Shown here: positions 697-26,673 of the stretch, piece by piece
Layout: every line of letters starts with the position of its first letter
Position numbering within the stretch: position 1 is the first letter of the stretch
Virus record (IMG/VR): IMGVR_UViG_3300023223_000479
Length of the DNA stretch: 27,534 nt
Direction: 5' to 3' (one strand)
Origin: a virus
Program-made: the position numbers and the translations under genes
The notes under the pieces: generated by a model
Databases searched by the model: none
Seen by the model: the letters and a program-made list of their open reading frames with translations, nothing else
What the model was told of the DNA's origin: nothing

Positions 697-1143
697 TATC
701 GCATAGCTAGCCTTAAGCCGATTCAATTGCTGCTTAATTCTTACTATATCTTTCCTGGAATTCTTAACCTCTGGTAACACCGATAACATAGATCCTACTA
801 ACTTATCAGCAGGTATATCATTAGCCTTAGCCCTACTTAATCCATCCCTACCTAGTAAAGATTCTACACTTAAAGATTTAAACTGAACATATTGGGCCGA
901 TACTATATTATCATTACTTCTCTGTAACTCATCCATAGCCCTCTCATAGTATAGTATCAAACCAGATAAAAATGATAGTGTAGGTAAAAACTCAAGCATT
1001 GTTTCCTCTGCTCCATAAGTGTTAATATCTGATAATGTAGAATTATCTATTATGGCTGTACCTGTAGTACCTCCATACTCTATAGCTACCTCATACACCT
1101 GTAAAAATTTTACATCTACTCCCTCTATTATTATGCCTCTCAT
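631..1143 (-). CDS. Helical protein, possible UvsY-like recombination mediator
   Basis: 170 aa with amphipathic coiled-coil helices (IKQQLNRLKASYAIVERVWETARSLNANER). Lies between the polymerase and SSB-like genes, with an ATGA overlap with the polymerase stop. Confidence 0.45.
   Translation of the reverse strand: MRGIIIEGVDVKFLQVYEVAIEYGGTTGTAIIDNSTLSDINTYGAEETMLEFLPTLSFLSGLILYYERAMDELQRSNDNIVSAQYVQFKSLSVESLLGRDGLSRAKANDIPADKLVGSMLSVLPEVKNSRKDIVRIKQQLNRLKASYAIVERVWETARSLNANERVERAG
1100..1114. repeat. Palindrome TGTAAAAWTTTTACA copy 1 (intragenic, near the 5' end of 631-1143)
   Basis: TGTAAAAATTTTACA, exact. Confidence 0.9.
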
Positions 1144-4100
1144 TTTGATTTCTTTTTACCTATTAATACTCCCGTACCATTATCCTGTAAATCAGCTAAA
1201 AGCTCCTCTCTTTTAAACTTTTCAATTTCTACTAAATCTTTCCAATTCTCGCCCACCTCTATATCTGATTTCATCTCTACATTATCGAACTCAAACCCAA
1301 AGTAGCTCTTATTAGGAGGGTTATTGAATGCCCTAACCATCCACCCCAAGTAACTATCCATCTGAGATCTCCTGATATATCCTAAAGCACTATCATGTAC
1401 TGTATTCAGTATATCCCCCTCATAATCTAAAATGCTCATCCTATCCTGGTGTACTATACAAGAAAATAATAATCCCTGACCACTGCTACCCTGGATAGGA
1501 CTATTCACAGATACCCGCTCATCAGAACTCCTATACTCCCTTGAGGATGAATTAATATAGGGTAGATGCCTCTTACTACCGTAGGCAGTTCTAACCCATC
1601 CATACCGCCTACCCTTAGCAATATACAATTCATGAGCCTTAGGTATATCAGGATGAAGGTTATTTAAGTAATCGCTATGTTGTGCTCTAGCCTGCTCCTT
1701 ACTAATATCAATACCATAATTAACCTTAGCATACTCCCTAAAGCTCTCAGCACTCATCTTATAGATCAATCCAAAATTCTTAGCCTTACCCTTAAACCTA
1801 TGATAATTTGCAGCCTCAGGATCATCCTGCATCATTATCTCATAATCCTCCAAACTAATATCTGTACCACTACAGGAGGCTAATGCATGTAGATCTACAT
1901 TGTTTCTAAAAGCCTCAGCCATAGTCTTAATCCTCCACAGAAACGTTAACCACCTTAACTCTGCCTGAGACAAATCCACCTGAAAAAACATATAAGGATC
2001 ATCCTGGTTAAAATCTACAGGGGTTTGAAACATTCTCTTAACATATCCTACTATCTCCTTGACCCTCTTCAACTTAGTCCTGCTAGGTATATTATGTAAG
2101 TTAGGATTTCTACTACTTATCCTTTGGGATTTCACAGTCTTAAACCTACTATGCACCCTATTATTCTCATCCAGTTTGCCTCTTATCCCCTCAAAGTACG
2201 TGCTCTTTACCGTAGACAATAGCCGGAACTCTAATATATTTTCAATTAGTCCAGTAGGATCAGGAAACAGGGATAGTATATCTTTATCCGTAGATGGGTA
2301 CGGGCCTACCTCCTTCTTATTCCTTCCTGTAGAGAAATCTTTTATAGTCCTGGTTACTACTGGCAACTCATAGTTTAACCCTGATGAACTCGTATAGATT
2401 AGTTTACCCAATTGAAGAGGAGAATTAAAATTCATCTCATAAAATAGTACAGTTTGGCCGGACCTGATAGAGTGTATTTTTCTAGCCCATGTAACAGGGT
2501 CTTTATAGGGGTAATCCTCTGAATAATAATTTTTAGCTAATACCTCTTTCCTCTTCTCGCATATAGTAGTATAGGTTTTCAAATGTACTTTATTCTCACT
2601 CTGCATTTTCTCCTTTTTTATCAAAAGCTCCTGCAATTTTTTCCTCTCAAAATTAGATATCTTTTCCTCTAATTCTCTGATTGCACCTCCCTCTATTGCC
2701 TCTCTCTCATACCTAACAAATGTTTTCACAATAGGCAAATTAACGAGTGTATTATTTATCTCCTCCAATAATACCTTACACTTATCTAAGCCCTCCTCCA
2801 TTACCTCAGTATTAACCGGCATACCTTTATACTCCATATCACCTAAAAGAGTTAGTTTAGATGTTTCATAATTCCTATATATCCGGTACAGCTTAGGATC
2901 TTTCATTAACTCGTACTCCAACAGGTATCTACCTCTTAAGGTTAAATCGTTATCAGTTGCACAATACTGACCTAAAGAGGCTAAAGGATCATTAGCATAA
3001 TCCACTCCCTCACCGTAACCCTCAAACTCTGGGTACATCTGAGGTATAATCTTTTTAAGCGCATGAGGGATATCCTCCCTCAGAGTATGATGCATTATTA
3101 AAGTATCATCTAGTCTACCTCTAAATGATAATCCCCACTCCAAACCTATAGTATAATCAAATTGAAAGTTATGGGCTACTTTCCTAATATCTGGGTTATC
3201 AAATACCTTATTGATTGTCGGTATTAGCACCTCATGTAACATAGATTCTATACCATTAGCCTTAGCATACTCCCAATTAATATACATAGCCCTAAAAAAA
3301 TCTTTATTCTCCTCACACATCACCACCACCTCATCGTTATACCTACGTATTAGCTCACCATTCTTACTCATCATTCTATCATCACCTACCCCACCCTTTG
3401 ATAATATCTCTAATACATCATTACACCCTATATTCCAGGGACTCTCACAATGCATCATAGGTAATATGTAACCGCTTCCTGGCTGAAAACTAATTCCCAA
3501 CATACTAGGCAATAGTTTTTTAAACTCTATTGAATGCTCTAGTATCTCCTTCTTACTTGTTAGCCCTTTCTGTTTCGGAAATGTCTCAAAGTCAAAGCAT
3601 ATCTCTTTTGTATCTTTGCAGTACTGTACAAGTGTATCCAGAGTAACAATGTCATTAACAAATACAGTTTTAGTCATTGTGGATACACTCTCAAACCCCA
3701 ATAAGGTATTATAGCATAATCCTACAGCCCTCTCTACTTTCTTAATATCCTCAACACTCTCAGGATCATCCTCAACTAAATAACAATTCTTAATTCTAAA
3801 CGATGAGGGGAAAGCCCAATAATCAATTAGATCCCCCTGCTCCTCAGTATATAACCTTTTCCTATTAAGCCTATACTGTATACTCGTATGATTACCAAAA
3901 TTTAGGAATGTAGTAACCTTTGCCCCAAACCCAATTATAGCTGACCAATCATCTCTATCAATAGTCTCTCCTCTCTTATCCTCCTTTTCCCAAGTATCCA
4001 ATGAGGTAACATACATTAAATCTTGTATTACCTGCCTTTGATTTTCCTTTAATCTCTTGATATCAGATATCCCATAAACACAATAACATAAGGATTCAAA

Positions 4101-4681: not shown

Positions 4682-4696
4682 TGTAAAAATTTTACA
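4682..4696. repeat. Palindrome copy 2 (4 nt upstream of ATG 4677)
   Basis: TGTAAAAATTTTACA, exact. Confidence 0.9.
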
Positions 4697-4709: not shown

Positions 4710-4835
4710 TTAAAGATTACCCGTTAGCCTCAAACAAAACAAAACCATAACAAGTATCCAACCCATACCTAAAAATATATCCCACCAAATAGGTACTCCA
4801 ATATCTCCCGGCTCATCTTCATTAATTATAGGCAT
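4710..4835 (-). CDS. Small single-pass membrane protein (41 aa), below the ORF track cutoff
   Basis: MPIINEDEPGDIGVPIWWDIFLGMGWILVMVLFCLRLTGNL*, preceded by AAAAGGAGGT-taaca-ATG; fills the gap between palindrome copies 2 and 3. Confidence 0.6.
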   Translation of the reverse strand: MPIINEDEPGDIGVPIWWDIFLGMGWILVMVLFCLRLTGNL

Positions 4836-4861: not shown

Positions 4862-4876
4862 TGTAAAAATTTTACA
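4862..4876. repeat. Palindrome copy 3
   Basis: TGTAAAAATTTTACA, exact; the 20-mer ctgtaaaaattttacacctc is identical to 4681-4700. Confidence 0.9.
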
Positions 4877-6631: not shown

Positions 6632-7597
6632 CTAAAATTGGTCTAATTTAGGTATTGATCTCTTTTGATTCTTAACCTCTCTTTTAACCTTATCCTTATA
6701 CTCAATATATCTATCTTTGGCTCCTGGTCCACACAAATATCCTAACTCTATATCTATATTCCTATCCCCTGAAAAGTTGCTATTATAGGCTTGTGTTTGA
6801 GCCTCTATCCACAAAGATATATATTTGGCTGATGCCTCAGGGGATGGATATTTAGCCTCACTCCTAGCCTCTATAAGCATCTCAAAGGCTACCAAAAACT
6901 TATACCTATATTTTATTGTGTTTGAGAATATATTAGTTACCCGCTCAGTAACTCTCATAAACTCTACAATCATAGTATCGGTGTAATCTCTATGAGAATC
7001 CCTGACTACCCTATAATACTCATTCAATAGAGATCCTGATTCTGTTTGTACGTTAGCATCTAAATAACTTTTTACTGAGAACTTTCTTTTGTTCCTCAAT
7101 AGAGGGGTTAGTATCCACACATATAGCTTATAGAATTCTCCTCTGTTCTTAGCAAATCTGGTAGCGCCTATAGACTTCCACGCCTCCTCTGCTAAATTCC
7201 ACAACGATATTAAATCCCCATAAGCCGCAGTACCCGCAATCAGTTTTTTAACAAATGCCCTATCATGTTTAAAGGGTAAATCCTTAGATACTCTTGCCTC
7301 AAATAATACATCATTCAATTGCTCCACATAATATTTAGGTACTCCTGATACTTGCTTTAATACCTGCGCTTTCTTTCTTCTATCCTTACCTGATACCTGT
7401 ATAACTATAGCACTCTCAGGTATACACTCTAACCCATCAGATTTCTTAGCCAACTCTAATACAAACTTTCTAATATTATTGGGTGTAAAATTTTTACAGG
7501 CTAATCTCATCATAGCCTGTACTGATCCCTCTTTTTGTATTAACTCAGTTAAAGCCTCTACACTCAATACCATTATAGGATTTTTGCCCTCACTCAT
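6632..7597 (-). CDS. Hypothetical protein in the replication module (basic, helical)
   Basis: 321 aa ORF abutting the helicase start; no recognisable motif. Confidence 0.75.
   Translation of the reverse strand: MSEGKNPIMVLSVEALTELIQKEGSVQAMMRLACKNFTPNNIRKFVLELAKKSDGLECIPESAIVIQVSGKDRRKKAQVLKQVSGVPKYYVEQLNDVLFEARVSKDLPFKHDRAFVKKLIAGTAAYGDLISLWNLAEEAWKSIGATRFAKNRGEFYKLYVWILTPLLRNKRKFSVKSYLDANVQTESGSLLNEYYRVVRDSHRDYTDTMIVEFMRVTERVTNIFSNTIKYRYKFLVAFEMLIEARSEAKYPSPEASAKYISLWIEAQTQAYNSNFSGDRNIDIELGYLCGPGAKDRYIEYKDKVKREVKNQKRSIPKLDQF
7484..7498. repeat. Palindrome copy 4 (intragenic, near the 5' end of 6632-7597)
   Basis: TGTAAAATTTTTACA, exact. Confidence 0.9.
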
Positions 7598-7637: not shown

Positions 7638-7652
7638 TGTAAAATTTTTACA
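7638..7652. repeat. Palindrome copy 5 (divergent intergenic region)
   Basis: TGTAAAATTTTTACA, exact. Confidence 0.9.
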
Positions 7653-7659
7653 GCCTAAT

Positions 7660-7690
7660 TAGGATAGTAATAGTTAAAAGCTTACCTTTG
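7660..7690 (+). promoter_or_regulatory. Bacteroidota-type promoter for 7717-8097
   Basis: TAG-N20-TACCTTTG; near-identical architecture at 25811-25841. Confidence 0.65.
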
Positions 7691-7716
7691 ATTATAACAA
7701 AAAAGAAATAACGATT

Positions 7717-8097
7717 ATGAAAACCACTAGATACCCTATTTTAAGCTACCAAAAAGATGGTCCTAACTGCTGGTCTTTTTATATGATAGAAAAAGGAGAA
7801 AAACCTGCAAGTATCGGACCTAAATACACAAAAGAAAAAGAGTTACTGGCAGATGTGAAAAGATTCTATACAGAAAGATTTTTAACCAATTGGCTTAAAC
7901 CCGAAAAACTTGAAGGTAAATTATCTTACGAAAGATGGGAGGAGTTATTTTATGATCAAGCTAATATTGAGTTTGCAGAATCAGGAGCAGATAGGGAGAT
8001 GAGCTTTAACTTGGAAAATGAGCTATTACGCCTGTATGAGAGGTACTGTAAATACTTTAAACTATATAATAAGTATTGTACTATTCACACCCATTAA
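7717..8097 (+). CDS. Hypothetical protein, counter-oriented moron-like gene
   Basis: 126 aa, A-rich initiation region, own promoter and downstream hairpin. Confidence 0.7.
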   Translation: MKTTRYPILSYQKDGPNCWSFYMIEKGEKPASIGPKYTKEKELLADVKRFYTERFLTNWLKPEKLEGKLSYERWEELFYDQANIEFAESGADREMSFNLENELLRLYERYCKYFKLYNKYCTIHTH

Positions 8098-9171: not shown

Positions 9172-9186
9172 TGTAAAATTTTTACG
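9172..9186. repeat. Palindrome copy 6 (1 mismatch), just upstream of the primase
   Basis: TGTAAAATTTTTACG. Confidence 0.85.
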
Positions 9187-9276: not shown

Positions 9277-9939
9277 CTACATCCTAGCCTCAAGAGTATC
9301 CATATTCAGTAACTCCTTACATGCATCCTCTATAATGGGCTTATCCAACCTCATTAAATATATATCCTCTGGACAATCTGTACCTTTAGGATCACACATA
9401 GCTCCAGGATATTCAATAAGCGTAACCCTTCGAGATAACCACCTAACAAACCTCATCCGCCTCTTCTTAACCTTATCGTGTAAAATACATTTAGGGATAA
9501 CCGTAACCAGCACCCCTCCAGGCATTAACAAACGATGATAATTATACCTGATATGGTCTATAATCTCATCGTCCTCAAAAGGAGGGTTTAATAATAAACA
9601 ATCAAAGTAATCATCATACCCCATCTTATGTAGAGAGAAACAATCTCTATTACTAACTCCTGGTACACCCATATCTAATACCGAGCATCTACTAGATACA
9701 AACATATTATACAATGCTATATCTATCTCATTATAAAAAGTATTAAACTCCTTAAGGACTTTTATCCCCCTTCTATTCCTATAAGCAGTAACATATGTAT
9801 TAATAAGTCTACCATACCCCCCACTGGTATCTCCCACAGCCTCAAACCTTCTATCTCCTAACATTGATACCATTAACTCAGCTACATATACAGGCGTTTC
9901 TTTAATCATACTCAAAGATACCAAAACCCTATATAACAC
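9277..9939 (-). CDS. N6-adenine DNA methyltransferase (gamma-class motif order); probable start ATG 9909
   Basis: Motif X ETPVYVAELMV, motif I GDTSGGYG, motif II NEID, motif IV LNPPF, LLMPGGVLVTVIP. Confidence 0.85.
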   Translation of the reverse strand: MLYRVLVSLSMIKETPVYVAELMVSMLGDRRFEAVGDTSGGYGRLINTYVTAYRNRRGIKVLKEFNTFYNEIDIALYNMFVSSRCSVLDMGVPGVSNRDCFSLHKMGYDDYFDCLLLNPPFEDDEIIDHIRYNYHRLLMPGGVLVTVIPKCILHDKVKKRRMRFVRWLSRRVTLIEYPGAMCDPKGTDCPEDIYLMRLDKPIIEDACKELLNMDTLEARM

Positions 9940-9961
9940 AAAAGGCTCCCAATGGGAGCCT
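9940..9961 (-). terminator. Intrinsic terminator after the ParB-like gene
   Basis: Minus strand aggctccc-att-gggagcct followed by a T run. Confidence 0.7.
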
Positions 9962-9993
9962 CAAGCGCGTTAGTTTGATTTATTCGTAGGTAC

Positions 9994-11142
9994 TTAAATT
10001 ACTCCTGAACCCTTAAGACCCCCACCATCAGGGTTATCCTGAAAATTCTGAGCCATGTAAATATTTTGCACAATATCCTCAAAAGGTAATTTCATTACCT
10101 GAGCATCAATCATAATCTGTACAATATCATCTACAATTGTACCGTTGAATCGCTTACCAAAACCCACACTCTTTTTATTAAACAAAATCTTAGAATCCTC
10201 ATCCTTAATATGGGCTGCAACTTTAGCACACTCCTCAGCGTATGAGTACCGCTCTGTACCTGCCGCTGATGAGGCTGCTGCCTGTACTGATGCTGCTGTT
10301 ACTGATCCTCCTGATGCCTCTGCCGTTGTTTGTGCTTGCGCTGCAATCTCCTCAGCACTCTTACCTCCTGTTTCTCCTGCTGATGCCAAAACTGCCGCCT
10401 TATTTGCTGCCGCAATAGATAACCACCCCTCCTCAATGCCCTTCAAAAGTTTTGGGTTACGGCCTGCCTTGAGGTAATAATAAACCAGTTCCCTGGTCAT
10501 ACCCATAGCATTGCCGATATCCGGTACACTCATATTATACTCATCCTCCAACTTAACAACATTAGCACATTTCTGGGTATTACTCCACTGCTTATGATTG
10601 TTGTTAGATATTTGACGCATCAATAATTCAGCCTCTTCTTTCTTTCCCTCAGGCTTCTTAATCAACTGTACAGCAACCAAAACTTTAGTACCATCAGTGC
10701 CGGGATACGCTTTCAAATCAAGTACCTTCCCTTCCTCATCTTTAACATTGCCTTTATTAACTTCCTGAATAGCATACATCCTACAAAATCCCTCAGCAAT
10801 ATTAACCTTAAATTGATACTTACCTCTGGCTTTAACATCAGTTACATAAGCCTCTACAGCCGTAGTCTGACCCTCTACAGCTATTTGTCTCTGCCGATCA
10901 ATAGGAGTATCAGCCTTAACCTGACTCTTATTACCTCTCGGATTAGTATTATAATTTACTATAATCTGAGGCAGAGGTAATAGTATAATCATACCGGGAA
11001 CAGGATTTTCGGGTAAACCAATTGGAATTGATCCCTCAGGACGTACAAATGCTGCTGTATCCTCTGACCCTGATACTTCAGTTGTATTACCTTCTACCGC
11101 CTCAGGAGCTTCTACTACAGGTGTTTCATTTTTCTTAGCCAT
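9994..11142 (-). CDS. ParB/Spo0J-family protein with HTH domain
   Basis: NTNPRG, GxxRxxA arginine patch (AEGFCRMYA), QISNNNHKQWS at the EN..R position, HTH MSVPDIGNAMGMTRELVYYYLK, LSIAAA; Ala-rich linker. Confidence 0.75.
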   Translation of the reverse strand: MAKKNETPVVEAPEAVEGNTTEVSGSEDTAAFVRPEGSIPIGLPENPVPGMIILLPLPQIIVNYNTNPRGNKSQVKADTPIDRQRQIAVEGQTTAVEAYVTDVKARGKYQFKVNIAEGFCRMYAIQEVNKGNVKDEEGKVLDLKAYPGTDGTKVLVAVQLIKKPEGKKEEAELLMRQISNNNHKQWSNTQKCANVVKLEDEYNMSVPDIGNAMGMTRELVYYYLKAGRNPKLLKGIEEGWLSIAAANKAAVLASAGETGGKSAEEIAAQAQTTAEASGGSVTAASVQAAASSAAGTERYSYAEECAKVAAHIKDEDSKILFNKKSVGFGKRFNGTIVDDIVQIMIDAQVMKLPFEDIVQNIYMAQNFQDNPDGGGLKGSGVI

Positions 11143-11201
11143 GATGTTATTTACTTAAATTAATATTAGATTAAACGTAATGTTTTGTTTTTATAACTAC
11201 G

Positions 11202-11233
11202 CAAATATATGTAAATAGTTTTACCTAATCAAA
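11202..11233 (-). promoter_or_regulatory. Bacteroidota sigma-A type promoter for the ParB-like gene
   Basis: Minus strand TTTG-attaggtaaaactatttaca (20 nt)-TATATTTG. Confidence 0.7.
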
Positions 11234-11249
11234 AAAACTTTCATTTACC

Positions 11250-11264
11250 TGTAAAATTTTTACA
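11250..11264. repeat. Palindrome copy 7 (between the helicase stop and the parB-like promoter)
   Basis: TGTAAAATTTTTACA, exact. Confidence 0.9.
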
Positions 11265-13074: not shown

Positions 13075-13089
13075 TGTAAAATTTTTACA
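13075..13089. repeat. Palindrome copy 8
   Basis: TGTAAAATTTTTACA, exact. Confidence 0.9.
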
Positions 13090-13426: not shown

Positions 13427-13441
13427 TGTAAAATTTTTACA
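13427..13441. repeat. Palindrome copy 9
   Basis: TGTAAAATTTTTACA, exact; 2 nt after the stop of 13444-14010. Confidence 0.9.
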
Positions 13442-16977: not shown

Positions 16978-16992
16978 TGTAAAAATTTTACA
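16978..16992. repeat. Palindrome copy 10
   Basis: TGTAAAAATTTTACA, exact. Confidence 0.9.
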
Positions 16993-18577: not shown

Positions 18578-18592
18578 TGTAAAAATTTTACA
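18578..18592. repeat. Palindrome copy 11
   Basis: TGTAAAAATTTTACA, exact. Confidence 0.9.
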
Positions 18593-18608: not shown

Positions 18609-20117
18609 TTAGATTCTATCTATGCTAGAAGATCTTTTACGGCCCTCATGCTTCCTATCCTTATCTCCCTCTTTATTATCTCCCTCACTCTTAGGATCAA
18701 TAGGATCTACCTTAGATTCTCCTGCCTTAGCAGCCAACTCGTTGTACTTGATAGCCAGCTTATTGTACTTATCAGCAGTAACCGTAGCCTCATCTCCCCA
18801 ATTCTCCTTATCTGCCTTAAGAGCGTCCCTCTCTTTAGTAGCTGTTACTAATTCCCCCTCTACCTCTGTTATTCGGGTAGCCTGGGTATCTGCTTTCTCA
18901 ATAGCAACAGTAGCCTCAGTTTCCAAAGTATCTACCTTAGTATTAGCCTCAGTCAAATCAGCCTTAACAGAATCCCTCTCCTCTGTGAGGGATTGAATCT
19001 CTGTAGCGTTTGTCTCAGCAGTTTGAGTAAGAGTAGTATTATCCGACTCCAACTTATCCATAGAAGCTCTGAGAGCGTTAGCCTCATCAGGGGTAAGCTC
19101 TACAGGCTCAGTAGTTGTGCTTTGACTTTTTGTGTACTTATCAAAAATTCCCATTTTCTTATTATTAGGAGTTACTTTAATCGTTTTCTTAGAAGTATTT
19201 CTTTTTCTTCTTGCAGATTTTACAGCATCTTGTAAAGATCCTATCTTATCTATAAGACCTAATTTCTTGGCATCTTTAGCCAAAAAAACCCTGCCTGAGA
19301 ATACTTTATCATCATCACTTAATTTCTTCCCTCTACCCTCTTTCACTGCCGCCTGAAACATTTTCCCAATGGGATTCAAAAACTTAGTAATTATCTCTGT
19401 TTTCTCTTCCTCAGATATTGCCCTAGTAGGTGGAGCAGCTATCTTATGAGTAGCATCATCGTTGGTTAGGAAAGTTATTTCTAAACCCTGATTGGTAAAG
19501 AAGCCCTCTCCATTGATATGCTGCATCACTACACCTATAGAGCCTACCTCTGAGGTTTGTCCTGATACAAATATTTCCTCTGTTTGAGATGCGGCCCAAA
19601 ACCCTGCACTAGCACACAAACCATCTACAAAAGATATTACCCGTTTCTTCTCGTTTGCATCTCTAATAGCTCTGGCTAAATCCTCTGTTCCATCTACTGT
19701 ACCTCCAGGAGTATCAAATACCAAAACAATACCAGATACTTGATCATCATCCGCTGCCTCCTTAACCAATCGTGTAACCCTGGATACTCCCGCTGTAGCA
19801 CTCATGGCATCCATATCAGCAGCCCTCTTAAACATAGTACCTATAACAGATATTATAGCTACATCCCCCTCTACATGTACTGAACCCATCCTAAATGTAT
19901 CCGACTCATCCAAATGTCCGGCTACAGGTCTTCCCCTCTTATCATCAAATCCTGCATACTTAGGAGTGTTCCGTTCCTTGTTCCCACTAAAATCATTATT
20001 CCTGTTACCCTGCATGATATTCATAGCAACAGACAGCAACTTTTCAGCGCTCTCAGGTCTTATAGCCCAAGTGCTCTGATATAGTAATGTTCCAAAGAAG
20101 GATATTCCAGTATTCAT
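18609..20117 (-). CDS. S49 (SppA/ClpP-like) prohead protease fused to a coiled-coil scaffold
   Basis: DTPGGTVDG, CASAGFWAAS, VGSIGV, SGRVF...A..LGLIDKIG; acidic heptad-rich C-terminus. Confidence 0.9.
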   Translation of the reverse strand: MNTGISFFGTLLYQSTWAIRPESAEKLLSVAMNIMQGNRNNDFSGNKERNTPKYAGFDDKRGRPVAGHLDESDTFRMGSVHVEGDVAIISVIGTMFKRAADMDAMSATAGVSRVTRLVKEAADDDQVSGIVLVFDTPGGTVDGTEDLARAIRDANEKKRVISFVDGLCASAGFWAASQTEEIFVSGQTSEVGSIGVVMQHINGEGFFTNQGLEITFLTNDDATHKIAAPPTRAISEEEKTEIITKFLNPIGKMFQAAVKEGRGKKLSDDDKVFSGRVFLAKDAKKLGLIDKIGSLQDAVKSARRKRNTSKKTIKVTPNNKKMGIFDKYTKSQSTTTEPVELTPDEANALRASMDKLESDNTTLTQTAETNATEIQSLTEERDSVKADLTEANTKVDTLETEATVAIEKADTQATRITEVEGELVTATKERDALKADKENWGDEATVTADKYNKLAIKYNELAAKAGESKVDPIDPKSEGDNKEGDKDRKHEGRKRSSSIDRI

Positions 20118-20142
20118 AATAGGTTGTGGAAAATCAAAGGTG

Positions 20143-20157
20143 TGTAAAATTTTTACA
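20143..20157. repeat. Palindrome copy 12
   Basis: TGTAAAATTTTTACA, exact (extends to GTGTAAAATTTTTACAC). Confidence 0.9.
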
Positions 20158-20267
20158 CCTACAAAAAATCAGCCTATATTTTTACGCTACAAGGTTAAAT
20201 GACCATTTTGCGTAAAAATATATAACAATACTTGCTTTATACTATATTTATACGTATGTGTACCTCT

Positions 20268-21110
20268 TTAATCTATACCATACATAGCTATAACCTTATC
20301 CCACACAACCTCAAATTTTTCTCTACTTGACCCCTTATATACTATTGTATCTGATTTAATATCGTTATCGCTTAAAATCTTATTAAACCAATTTACCCAA
20401 CCAATCAATACGCCTAAGCAGTTTTCACCTAAAATATTAATACCTTGCTTTTGTATTGTCTGAGATATGCTCTCTAATTTCTTAATAGAATCCTCCTTTC
20501 TACTACCTATTAACCTTCTTAAATTATCGTATCCAGTATGATGCATATATAACCACCTTTTAAATTCCCCATTATCTTCTCTATGATACATTATATTAAA
20601 TAAATCGTGCAAGGAATTGAATGTACCCTGACCCTCAAAAAGTATATAAAATATATCCCTATCCTTATTCTGCACCTCCACCTCCAGATACACCGTAGGT
20701 GTTAATTTATCGTATCTATGTACATGGAATATGTATGCATGGAAATCTAACCCCCCTATTTGAAACTTGCTTACAGGGGATACTACAGGCTTTTTATCAT
20801 CCTTACCGTTTAGCATAGCAAAACTAAACCCCACCTGCTCACCATTCCCCATTATAAATGTACTAACCGGCTTTAACGGTTTGTACTTAGAGCATAACCC
20901 CTTTAAAATATTTGTGGGAGATGATACTTTTACATCCGCTGCCACACTATTATTTAAGATAATAGATTCTCCCTCCTCTCCTGACTTAGGCACCCTCAAT
21001 ATTACAGACCTTCCTAAGTCAATATCTGGATGTCCCTGTACCCCTAGTTTAGCCGATTTAACATTGAACGTAGGAATAATTTTATCGTAAATACGATCTA
21101 ATGATTTCAT
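20268..21110 (-). CDS. Hypothetical protein
   Basis: 280 aa ORF between the tape measure and protease genes; no recognised motif. Confidence 0.7.
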   Translation of the reverse strand: MKSLDRIYDKIIPTFNVKSAKLGVQGHPDIDLGRSVILRVPKSGEEGESIILNNSVAADVKVSSPTNILKGLCSKYKPLKPVSTFIMGNGEQVGFSFAMLNGKDDKKPVVSPVSKFQIGGLDFHAYIFHVHRYDKLTPTVYLEVEVQNKDRDIFYILFEGQGTFNSLHDLFNIMYHREDNGEFKRWLYMHHTGYDNLRRLIGSRKEDSIKKLESISQTIQKQGINILGENCLGVLIGWVNWFNKILSDNDIKSDTIVYKGSSREKFEVVWDKVIAMYGID

Positions 21111-21125
21111 AATTTACCTCAACTT

Positions 21126-24100
21126 TTATAGTTCTGATTTAGTTTCTTGTCTTACTAGGTTAGCCTCCTGCTTTCTCTGCTCTATCAAGGAGAATACTAA
21201 TTCCTGATTCTGTACAGATTTATCTATAGTCTGTAAATCATCTCTCACCCCTGCTATCTCTCGGGTCAAACCCTCAAACCCCTCTGCTAACTCTTGGAAT
21301 ACTATATTAGTAGCACCCCCTACTCCTGTTACTGCTCCCCCTGTTTGAAATCTATACTTAGGCGCTCTAACTGGTACTCTCGGAATATTCACCATACTAT
21401 TAGAGCCTACAGATTTAACCATTCCGAATAGAGTAGACATATCCCCAAACGGCCTACCCTGTTTCCTAAGTATACCCTGATGATTTGTCCACTGTAGCAG
21501 AGGATAAAATAGCTCTGTGGCCCATCTGTTATGCTCAAACTCTCCTCCCTCTACCTCGATAGGTATTCCTCCCTGAGAGTGTCTTGGTCCCCTATGCATA
21601 CCTCCATAACCCTTTCTCCTGGTTCTTGCCGGATATCTCTTAGTAGGTACATCTCCCCCTCCTGCAAATAGCAAGGCCGTATCTCCTCCCGACTCAAGAG
21701 AAACAGATTGAGTTAGTTTCCTAGCACTGACTATGCCTGCTGCAATTGCAGCTATTATAGATATGATTGCAGCTATATTTGCAGGAAATGGTATCTTAGC
21801 CCCCTCAGATATAGCCTTGAGGTTATTACTCAAAGTCACAATATTATTACGGGCTATAGTAGCATTATCAAGTATAGATTGTATGGCTTGGGCTTTCTGC
21901 TCTGCTAGTTGTGCCTTCTTTTGTATTAACTCCTGAGTCTTCTGCTGATCCTGTAATATTTTAATCTCACTCTCTGACCTTGCCTTTTCCTCCTCAATCT
22001 CTTTCTCTTTCCTTAATGCCAACTCATCTAATAATCTCTTCTCCTCATCTGTAGAAAATCCTTTGGATTCAATATCTAATGCTCTAGCCTCAAACTCCTC
22101 CTCTATAGCGGCTAAATTATCTGAACTTGTTTGCTCTCTCTGCTCCTGAGTTCTCTTTAAATTATTTATCTCTGTATTAGCCTGATCCTCTACTACTCCT
22201 TTTATAGAAGATACTATACTAACAAAACCATCTAAAGCCTGCTTTTGAGCCTCAAGGGATTTCTTTATTTCCTCCCTCTTTTTCTCCTCTACTTCCCTAA
22301 CTTTATCTAATTCAAGGTCTTTGATATTATTTAATATCTCTAATCTCTCCTGCTCCAACTTCAAGGTATCCTCAGCCGATAATTCTAATATAGCAAGTTG
22401 ATCATTTATAAAGTCCAATTGAGCATCTAACCTATCCTGGTCAGCCTTCTCCTCGATAAGTTTTTTATCCTCCTCTAACTGCTCAAGATTTGCTAACTCC
22501 TCCTCATCTCCCTCTAATATCAAAGATATCTCATTTAACCTATTCTGCTGTACCTGTAATAGTCTGGCATCTAGCACCTCCTCTAAAGCCTTCTGCTCCC
22601 TGGCTATCCTATCTTGTGTTGATTTCTCTGTAGCCTGAGCTATCTTATCATCAAACTCCTTATTAATAGACTCTATCAGTGATACCCTTTGCTCCGCTGT
22701 AACCTGTAATAGCGTATCCTCATCTATTCCTGCCTTAATCAATGCCTGCCTCTCTGACTCAAATCCGGCTAACCTGATATCTAACCTCTCTAATGCCTGA
22801 TTCCTTAGTACCTCTAATCCCTCTATAGATTTCTCTCCACCTGCTGCCTCTGCATCGGCTAACTCTATCTCCTTAGCTATAGCGGCATTCAGCTTAATTA
22901 TTCTCTTATCCAATGCCTTAACAGCGCTCTCATGGCTTTTTATAGATTTAGCGCTTGCCCCTGTTATCTTCCTTATTAACTTCTCAGTTTCATCTATTTT
23001 TACCTGTAAAGCATCATACTCCTCTCTAGTTCTTGTTAATTCCTGATCCTTTTTAAACTGAGCTACCTCTTTCCTTAAATCCTCTAGTTTTTTCCTGGTA
23101 TCATCTATAACACCCCCATCCCCATCTCCTACAATTGACTCAGGAATAGAAGGATTATTAATAAAGAAATCGTTTATATCCCTTACCTCATCGTTTAATA
23201 CTACTGTAGCGCCCACCAAGTCTACTAAAGCTACTGAAGCCTCTGCACCCCCCTCTGCTATAACATTAAGAGCATTAGATACTGTTTCAGACAATCCTCC
23301 TCCCCCTGCTATCCTACCTACAAAAACTTCAAGCCCTGAATCTATATCAGAAAAACTATCTAAGATTGCTTGCCTCTGTTCATCTGATGTATCTCTTAAA
23401 AATCCCGATAACTCCTCATTAACTTTACGTAACTGTGAGGCACTAATTCCGGTACGCCTAATTAACTCTTGGGATGCTATTTGTTGATCTTCTATAGCCC
23501 TGGTTATACTTGCTGTTATCTGCTGCTCCCTAACCTGTAAAGCTATTTTCTGAATCAACGCCGCATTGACCGCATTTTGAGCCTTAGCTATATCTTCTAA
23601 ACTAGACTCCTCAGTTAAGAGATTAGGTAGGTATTGCTTATACGACTTATTAATCTCATCAATTGCCTCAGTCCTTTCTTTCCTACTTAACGTCTCATCT
23701 TTAGCTACCCTAAATAGTTTCTCAGACTCTACGGTTTCTTGTGCTATCGCCTTAGCTAAATCTTCCTCTAATTCAAGCTGCCTTTTTTGCGCCTCTGTTA
23801 ACCTATTAGTACCGGATGTTAAGGCTATTACAGCCCCTACTAATGCCCCTACAGCAATAGATACCCTAACTATAGGGTTTACAGATAATACTACATTCCA
23901 TGCCTGTTGAGCAGCGGTAGCCAAACCTATTGTACCTGTTAACAAGTTTGTGGCTACTATATATAGACTTGTAGCTATAGATGCAGCACTAAGTAACGGA
24001 CCTACTAAAAGCATTACCCCATTATATAATACCTGCTGTACTACAGCTAATTTAGTGGCTACTCTATTAGCTATTAATGCGGCTGTATAAGTTCCTAATG

Positions 24101-25641: not shown

Positions 25642-25656
25642 TGTAAAAATTTTACA
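25642..25656. repeat. Palindrome copy 13 (4 nt upstream of the tape measure ATG)
   Basis: TGTAAAAATTTTACA, exact. Confidence 0.9.
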
Positions 25657-25789: not shown

Positions 25790-25804
25790 TGTAAAAAATT
25801 TACA
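25790..25804. repeat. Palindrome copy 14 (1 mismatch)
   Basis: TGTAAAAAATTTACA. Confidence 0.85.
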
Positions 25805-25810
25805 TCAGTC

Positions 25811-25841
25811 TAGGAATTGTAATTAGGAAAGCTTACCTTTG
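25811..25841 (+). promoter_or_regulatory. Bacteroidota-type promoter for the plus-strand island
   Basis: TAG-N20-TACCTTTG; shares AAAGCTTACCTTTGnTTATA with the 7660-7690 promoter. Confidence 0.65.
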
Positions 25842-25846
25842 GTTAT

Positions 25847-26080
25847 ATGGAAAAGCAATTACAGCAACTTATAGATAAATACCCTCCTAACAATACTTCT
25901 TACGGACCTATAGATACTCATAAGGTTAAATTTTGTGGGGAATACGGGGAAAGCTCAGGGGAGTGTACATTATCTGAATTAGCTGAGTGGATTGAATTTC
26001 CTAACCATATCCGTTGTGTAAGTATTATTAGTGGGCGTGCTATTATTTGTGGAAAATTATACACTATAATTCCTGAGTGA
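25847..26080 (+). CDS. Hypothetical protein (plus-strand island)
   Basis: 77 aa, directly after the promoter. Confidence 0.6.
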   Translation: MEKQLQQLIDKYPPNNTSYGPIDTHKVKFCGEYGESSGECTLSELAEWIEFPNHIRCVSIISGRAIICGKLYTIIPE

Positions 26081-26301
26081 TTATGAAAGTAAAGGGAAAG
26101 ATTGTATTAGATAATGGAAGCGATTATTTTTTTGCGGATGACAAACATTATGGGTTTACTCCTTACATGGAGAATATAATGAAATCAGCTACACTTTTAG
26201 CCATAGATTTTAAAGTAAAGGTAAAAGTTATTAGGCTACTAAATAACTATAAAGAAGAAATACTATCTTCAATTAACTTTAATAGGTTTATAAATTATTG
26301 A
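26077..26301 (+). CDS. Hypothetical protein (plus-strand island)
   Basis: 74 aa, overlaps the previous stop; AT-rich. Confidence 0.55.
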   Translation: MIMKVKGKIVLDNGSDYFFADDKHYGFTPYMENIMKSATLLAIDFKVKVKVIRLLNNYKEEILSSINFNRFINY

Positions 26302-26303
26302 CT

Positions 26304-26656
26304 ATGTACGTTACTTATCAAACCCCCCCCCTTGGATTTTTGGGGGTAAACACCAACCACAAAAGACACTTGAAGCTATTATCGATTTAATAGAATCTAT
26401 TGGTGATATTCAACCAGGGCATTTAGGGGGAAATGCGATGGACAATATTTTTTTAAAAATAGATTGTTCTGGCTATAAAAAACAGGTTGTATTACCTAAA
26501 GAAACAGCGTTAATAATTAGGATGATATTAGATTCAGCAAAGGAGGATACTAAAGAAGCATATGAACAAGGTAAGAAAGATGGTGCTAATTTGCTTGCTC
26601 AACTAAGAGACGGTAATATATCTAGTTTTGATTTTGATCAGCAAACAAAATATTAG
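26304..26656 (+). CDS. Hypothetical protein probably split by a frameshift at a C9 tract (track calls only 26438-26656)
   Basis: The ATG 26304 frame stops at 26390. The 26438 frame is open back to 26294. One extra C in 26323-26331 joins them into 117 aa. Confidence 0.5.
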
Positions 26657-26658
26657 TC

Positions 26659-26673
26659 TGTAAAAATTTTACA
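26659..26673. repeat. Palindrome copy 15 (between convergent stops)
   Basis: TGTAAAAATTTTACA, exact; fills 15 of the 20 intergenic bases. Confidence 0.9.

Follow-up and report, generated by a model that had tools for sequence, protein, structure and literature searches.

An orphan ParB/KorB-like protein as a candidate reader of a genome-wide palindrome array in an uncultured tailed phage

The viral DNA analysed here (27,534 nucleotides of IMG/VR record IMGVR_UViG_3300023223_000479, hereafter the window) raises the question of which protein reads a short palindrome, TGTAAAAWTTTTACA, present in 16 copies at ≤2 mismatches against 0.23 expected, and, in particular, whether this reader is the 382-amino acid (aa) protein of ParB/KorB type encoded at positions 9994..11142 on the minus strand. 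That this protein reads the palindrome array, in the manner of KorB or Noc, is favoured over every other single hypothesis; the evidence is circumstantial, and the probability assigned to it is roughly 40%. The ParB/KorB-like identity of the protein itself is considered secure. Both questions were approached with the help of a relative, designated G001 (IMGVR_UViG_3300009788_000005), a phage whose 85,758-bp genome is complete and has direct terminal repeats. It shows synteny with the window, its proteins being 50-82% identical, and contains the only close homologue of the ParB-like protein.

Assignment of the 382-aa protein to the ParB superfamily

Searches of Pfam and NCBIfam returned no significant match for the 382-aa protein, and phmmer against PDB yielded low-complexity noise only. 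The Pfam failure is due to a sequence that is too divergent, detection being achieved by PHROG, profile and fold. Namely, the family PHROG_1033, annotated as 'ParB-like partition protein', matches the protein at E 1.2e-9. The protein family is tiny, comprising among 1.8 billion representatives one close homologue (P0002, 56% identity, encoded in G001) and three remote ones. The helix-turn-helix (HTH) domain HTH_ParB (PF17762) scores above the cut-off in the remote member P0004, which also touches KorB, reaches E 3e-4 in the G001 orthologue and stays below threshold in the window protein. When a profile of the five sequences was compared with PDB, the nine best matches were all ParB-family chains, including Spo0J (E 1e-3), Noc, ParB and P1 ParB, and the alignment to Spo0J placed box III and the HTH in register.

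Structure prediction led to the same family. The AlphaFold2 (AF2) model built from the five-sequence alignment showed block-mean values of the predicted local distance difference test (pLDDT) mostly between 75 and 90 over residues 40-290, compared with a pLDDT of only 37 for the single-sequence model. Its domain layout consists of a disordered segment (residues 1-36), a ParB/Srx N-terminal domain (approximately 48-180), an HTH domain (approximately 185-295) and a poorly modelled helical C-terminus. The best 21 Foldseek matches listed were all ParB, Noc, KorB or Spo0J structures (probability 1.0, ~240 columns), and VIA-align gave two-domain matches to KorB (8qa9, Z 12.8, 203/209 residues), Caulobacter ParB (Z 12.2) and Noc (Z 11.2), the best of which, KorB, covers both the N-terminal domain and the HTH. 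Taken separately, model residues ~48-180 align to the N-domains of ParB, PadC and sulfiredoxin (e.g. 7bm8, Z 8.8, root-mean-square deviation 2.7, 99 residues), and those from 185 to 297 correspond to the DNA-binding domains of Noc, ParB, KorB and SopB (Z 8.8, 8.2, 7.7 and 7.1, respectively). The nearest clusters in the ESM Atlas are viral HTH_ParB/KorB proteins. The ParB-family assignment proposed in a first-pass annotation, made from the nucleotide sequence and its translated reading frames, is thus borne out by PHROG, the PDB profile, the AlphaFold model, Foldseek and VIA-align, all top structural matches of the profile/AlphaFold check being ParB, Noc or KorB. As judged from the model, the 382-aa protein belongs to the ParB-CTPase superfamily as a highly divergent member lacking a partner, in which the predicted N-terminal nucleotide-binding domain and HTH are canonical.

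A 21-bp dyad tiled across the genome

The genome of G001 contains 49 copies of the palindrome, of which 44 are perfect, and none of the reversed control. Alignment of 64 sites extended the motif to a 21-bp dyad, R-N-S-TGTAAAAWTTTTACA-S-N-Y, with S at positions +/-1 (81% and 86% of the sites) and purine/pyrimidine (R/Y) at positions +/-3 (89% and 92%). The palindrome sequence is invariant, without any compensatory changes, and its RNA hairpin amounts to only -1.8 kcal/mol, a value that rules out the site as an RNA hairpin or terminator. The site is probably not a phage RNA-polymerase promoter either, since the motif is symmetric and no RNA polymerase family was detected among the scanned G001 proteins. 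Flanks of the type GG...GG were also considered as a directional signal and rejected, as they represent the symmetric S and R/Y positions skewed by the G-richness of the coding strand. Taken together, the symmetric flanks, the invariance, the negligible hairpin and the use in both orientations point to a double-stranded DNA target, which on sequence grounds would be bound by a dimer.

The location of the sites relative to genes admits a different explanation, in which no phage DNA binder uses the palindromes as operators. They would act in RNA or in translation, be bound by a host factor or mark the boundaries of recombination, and have no connection with the ParB-like gene. Coding sequence makes up 88% of the G001 genome, and yet 42 of its 49 sites are intergenic. 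In many cases the palindrome is separated by 3-9 nt from a following ATG or by 0-6 nt from a preceding stop codon, and in several it contributes the stop codon. Against this explanation stand the weakness of the RNA hairpin, flanks that are symmetric rather than directional and the orientation-independent use on both strands seen at positions 7638 and 25790 of the window; in addition, the intragenic copies are kept between the two phages and even out the spacing. This explanation is regarded as unlikely.

The spacing itself is far from random. The coefficient of variation of the distances between G001 sites is 0.62, compared with 0.98 for random placement, and none of 5000 simulations (0/5000) was as even; the evenness also exceeds that of random gene junctions (P = 0.009). 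The intragenic copies lie inside long genes, close to the middle of the longest stretches devoid of gene junctions (P = 3.5e-4; 8e-4 when tested conservatively), and even out the spacing beyond chance, two of them occupying the same positions in both phages. The mean site spacing of 1.7 kb is comparable to the sliding range of KorB, which reaches up to ~1.5 kb from its operators (PMC11790492). Even tiling and gap-filling would be needed by a reader with a limited spreading or sliding range and not by an ordinary repressor or activator, and by this analogy the array fits a sliding or spreading clamp of the ParB/KorB type better than an ordinary repressor. Regarding the KorB/Noc-like multi-site mode suggested in the first-pass annotation, the spacing statistics fit it; protein and motif continue to be linked by their co-occurrence in two closely related phages.

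In the window, where the copies number 15-16, some precede the starts of genes at 4682..4696 (4 nt before an ATG), 9172..9186 (one mismatch, 8 nt before the primase start), 13075..13089 (37 nt before a helicase start) and 25642..25656 (4 nt from the probable ATG of the tape-measure gene), and follow stop codons at 13427..13441 (by 2 nt) and 26659..26673 (by 3 nt). The copy at 1100..1114 is situated inside the 5' end of a gene, at a position that is also occupied in G001, and that at 7484..7498 lies inside a gene, its position being conserved in G001. Additional copies are found at 4862..4876, 16978..16992, 18578..18592 and 20143..20157. The copy at 7638..7652 is located 6 nt upstream of the plus-strand promoter TTAG-N20-TACCTTTG, and a copy with one mismatch (25790..25804) heads a plus-strand promoter module. 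Among the sites of the array, approximately 11 have a host-type -33 element 3-26 nt downstream of them, distances of 6 or 16 nt being the most frequent.

Two arrangements involving the palindrome were observed in addition. The few plus-strand genes (7638-8097 and 25790-26656) have at their head an inverted palindrome and, 6 nt beyond it, the TTAG-N20-TACCTTTG promoter; this module recurs many times in G001. Between 4682 and 4876, two palindromes 180 bp apart flank an open reading frame (ORF) of 41 codons (4710-4835), which is missing from G001 and looks like a small inserted gene unit.

The ParB-like gene unit and the adjacent methyltransferase-like gene

In coding-strand order, the stop codon of the upstream helicase gene is followed by 3 nt, a palindrome copy (11250..11264), 16 nt, a -33/-7 promoter of host type (Bacteroidota sigma-A style, TTTG-N20-TATATTTG, 11202..11233, minus strand), 59 nt and the ATG of the ParB-like gene. 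Directly 3' of its stop codon lies a terminator-like hairpin (9942..9962, minus strand) of 9 pairs, 6 of them G-C, which is followed by the T-rich tail TTGTGTT. With its own promoter and hairpin terminator, the ParB-like gene is therefore a self-contained single-gene unit. The palindrome-promoter-gene-terminator unit is conserved in both phages, the G001 orthologue having the promoter CTTG-N20-TACCTTTG at the equivalent place and an equivalent hairpin after the gene. As a single-gene unit of this kind, it would probably be expressed early from its host-type promoter and independently of read-through.

The deduced protein contains the motifs NTNPRGN, EGFCRMYA (G118-x-x-R121) and RQISNNNHKQWS. 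The ParB-type N-terminal motifs, the HTH, the gene's own promoter and terminator and the palindrome 16 nt upstream had all been described in the first-pass annotation, and all are confirmed from the sequence. The autoregulation that was deduced from them is compatible with the placement of the palindrome upstream of the promoter; as an argument this is weak, because palindromes are found at most gene boundaries.

Downstream, a small gene at 9277..9909 (minus strand) encodes a methyltransferase-like protein with the S-adenosylmethionine (SAM) motif I and NPPF and with matches to PHROG DNA methyltransferases. This pairing of an orphan ParB-CTPase fold with a DNA-modification-type gene resembles that of phage ParB-like modification activators and ParB-methyltransferase fusions (PMC13229309, PMC12704722), and the two proteins could be envisaged as a split ParB-methyltransferase fusion, which would direct DNA modification to its targets or switch it on, perhaps in or near the palindromes. 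Both phages have the two genes side by side, and the methyltransferase-like protein lacks a recognisable target-recognition domain; fusions of ParB-CTPase folds with N6_N4 methyltransferases are enriched among phages (PMC12704722), and activation of a DNA thymine dioxygenase by a phage ParB has been described (PMC13229309). However, a terminator lies between the two genes, the methyltransferase identity is weak (no Pfam match, and a weak HsdM alignment across NPPF), and the modification-linked phage ParBs described so far are devoid of the HTH DNA-binding domain (PMC13229309, PMC12704722), which is complete in the 382-aa protein. A split module of this sort is judged distinctly unlikely.

Comparison with known multi-site systems

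Among known systems, the closest counterpart is KorB, also first in the structural comparison, which acts at its OB operators on the IncP-1 plasmid RK2 (PMC11790492; 8qa8, 8qa9, 1r71). As in the phage, a protein with a ParB N-terminal domain and an HTH is accompanied by many dispersed short palindromes, some of them adjacent to promoters and others far away; those of RK2 have a genome-wide role. Unlike the phage protein, KorB has a ParA partner, IncC, and the clamp-locking protein KorA, neither of which was found here, a KorA-like protein not having been specifically sought. KorB keeps the Glu of GERRxR, which is Phe in the 382-aa protein, and the sequence similarity between the two is below Pfam thresholds. 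The KorB replicon is a plasmid, whereas the present one is a lytic-type phage, and RK2 carries about a dozen KorB sites, compared with ~50 palindromes in this phage type.

The second counterpart, Noc of Bacillus (7nfu, 7ol9, 6y93), is an orphan ParB paralogue without ParA, which binds many palindromes across the replicon and spreads from them; the array described here is similar. Noc differs in that it tethers host chromosome DNA to the membrane and thereby blocks cell division. The linear plasmid-prophage N15 likewise has scattered palindromic centromere sites of SopB, some of which are near promoters, but there are only four of them, and N15 has the partner SopA and a plasmid prophage lifestyle.

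A parallel among phages is provided by the Cluster O mycobacteriophages, such as Corndog, which contain >30 invariant 17-bp dyads, no ParA and an unexplained 'ParB-like domain protein' (PMC4351075). The Corndog protein, gp90, has ParB_N, and hhalign aligns it to the family of the 382-aa protein with a probability of 87% (E 3.6e-6) across the N-domain, box III and the HTH. Like the phages studied here, Cluster O phages are not apparently temperate, and their dyads are mostly located in short intergenic gaps or near gene starts; they differ in the motif, TGTTCGGNNNCCGAACA, and in the sites being concentrated in one arm rather than tiled (PMC4351075). The authors of that work drew no link between gp90 and the dyad repeat (PMC4351075). 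By analogy, the Cluster O dyads and gp90 may represent an independent parallel to the array and the ParB-like protein. The literature searched yielded surveys of orphan phage ParB folds and a ParB-activated thymine dioxygenase; in none of this work is an array of sites across a phage genome attributed to a protein of ParB type.

Nucleotide-binding motifs and the absence of a ParA partner

All five family members share G118 and R121, the two fixed residues of the phosphate motif GxxR in box II, and these align to the GQRR of Corndog gp90. The catalytic Glu of GERR is replaced in each of the five, the residue after G118 being F, Y or H (Phe in the window protein). Box III can be aligned either as SNNNH (HMMER against Spo0J) or as NNNHK (hhalign against Corndog gp90), the Asn being kept and the Glu missing in both cases. 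The reading SNNNH of the first-pass annotation thus stands as one valid alignment and its lack of Glu holds, NNNHK being equally alignable. With GxxR and the Asn of box III retained and both Glu residues gone, nucleotide binding with slow or no hydrolysis is plausible for the 382-aa protein. Orphan ParBs often have a divergent box III, and nucleotide preference is not predictable from sequence (PMC12704722).

The PHROG family name and the ParB-type fold could be taken to indicate classical ParB/parS partition of a plasmid prophage whose ParA is encoded elsewhere. The N-terminal ParA-interaction motif LG(R/K)GL (PMC12704722) is, however, not present in residues 1-60 of the protein, and the 49 G001 sites are evenly dispersed instead of forming a centromere cluster. 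The absence of ParA from the window, noted in the first-pass annotation, was confirmed, and the search was extended to the complete genome of G001, in which no match to the ParA families PF13614 or PF01656, no tyrosine or serine recombinase (integrase, resolvase) and no HTH of the Cro/CI type were found. A partition role of the 382-aa protein is therefore very unlikely, and the classical scheme with a distant ParA appears highly improbable; the ParB/parS variant of the earlier proposal is not supported, there being neither ParA nor lysogeny genes and ~50 dispersed sites.

Candidate readers of the array

If the ParB-like protein is the reader, the most likely mechanism would be as follows. A ParB-like dimer, the candidate reader of the 21-bp dyad that tiles the genome every ~1.7 kb, would load at the dyads and close into a nucleotide-gated clamp, like KorB or Noc. 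The clamp would then slide or spread across the 1-2 kb between sites, so that the whole genome would be covered, and the coverage might serve to control the timing of transcription or to coat the DNA. In its full form, namely a hydrolysis-impaired ParB/KorB clamp without ParA or KorA, which loads at ~50 tiled dyads and exerts genome-wide control or shielding in a lytic-type Bacteroidota phage, this proposal is tentative and, taken as a whole, rather doubtful.

Several observations weigh against the ParB-like protein as the reader. The family model ParB_N (Pfam PF02195) gives no match to the window protein and none in a six-frame search of G001, and the C-terminal (dimerisation) region, residues 300-382, is predicted to be helical with pLDDT <55. 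Most sites directly adjoin a start or stop codon, a position that would equally be explained by a conventional signal of gene expression. In 19-mer scans of IMG/VR and JGI metagenomes, the array was found in only two phages, both of which carry the gene, and with n=2 the co-occurrence says little. Four residues of the putative recognition helix are not the same in the two phages (TRELVYYY and GRTAVHYY), whereas the palindrome is identical in both. Furthermore, ~80 small G001 ORFs without assigned function could conceal another DNA binder, and a host factor is a possible reader too.

As to the distribution of the array, the 19-mer scans revealed multiple copies only in G001, together with single copies in 17 other metagenome contigs, which are taken as chance matches; a 15-mer scan gave single matches among the matches listed. 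A search for array-bearing relatives with a helicase marker recovered only G001 again, and the contigs of the three remote homologues were not found in the IMG/VR and JGI scans. The best-conserved part of the ParB-like protein is the helix pair after the recognition helix, KLLKGIEEGWLS.AAA.KAAVLA. The small G001 ORFs gave no Pfam HTH matches, no specific search for a KorA-like clamp-locking partner having been made.

The Pfam scan of G001 ORFs detected only one other sequence-specific DNA binder, a winged-helix protein of 267 aa (P0006, G001 61246-62046, minus strand; HTH_24), the orthologue of which (P0007) is encoded on the contig of the present phage, outside the window (284 aa, 51% identity). 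The palindromes might be read by this protein, or by the product of a small ORF, in which case the ParB-like protein would act in the replication module, for example in origin binding or as a helicase/primase accessory. The winged-helix protein, which may thus be either a rival palindrome reader or a replication initiator, has HTH_24 above the cut-off as well as MarR_2, HTH_Crp_2 and HTH_36, and the outer bases TGT...ACA are typical of many winged-helix and CRP-type sites. It adds to the points against the ParB-like reader by being common to both array-bearing phages, by having a host-type promoter of its own and by a recognition helix that is nearly identical between the phages, that of the ParB-like protein being less conserved. 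On the other hand, classical regulators would not need evenly tiled sites with gap-filling intragenic copies, no palindrome lies within 2 kb upstream of the promoter of the winged-helix gene, and phage winged-helix proteins of the HTH_36 type are often replication initiators. Reading by another phage protein is considered somewhat unlikely.

Were the 382-aa protein to load at the tiled sites, a single mechanism would account for the orphan phage ParBs as well as the genome-wide dyad repeats, and clamp-based long-range regulation would extend from plasmids to viruses. Orphan ParB-fold proteins are common on phages, almost none of them with a known function, and genome-wide phage dyad repeats, such as those of Cluster O, have been without a known reader for a decade. 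The combination of a tiled array and an orphan clamp in the genome of a lytic-type phage would vary the KorB/Noc theme in a new way, in a system that is small and easily tested, consisting of one protein and one 21-bp site.

Other features of the two genomes

The window is part of the genome of an uncultured tailed phage, with nearly all genes on the minus strand, including those for a tape-measure protein, a head protease, a DnaB-like helicase, a primase, a second helicase and a family-A DNA polymerase. Comparison with GenBank phages gave neither a DNA nor a protein match. Strand asymmetry is very strong, the GC skew of the plus strand being -0.2 to -0.5 in the whole window and in G001, where 123 of the 129 called ORFs are on one strand. 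A G001 protein has a C-terminal sorting domain of the type IX secretion system (Por_Secre_tail, E 1e-5), which supports a Bacteroidota host.

In bacteria, ParB proteins load SMC, and Rad50-like recombination proteins are common in phages. At 19598-22735 (minus strand), G001 encodes a 1045-aa SMC_N/AAA_23 protein with ATPase motifs of the Rad50/SbcC or SMC-like type, and a palindrome copy lies in the middle of this gene. The same genome contains, at 1844-2347 (minus strand), a gene for a circularly permuted YpsA protein of the SLOG family (Pfam E 3.4e-37).

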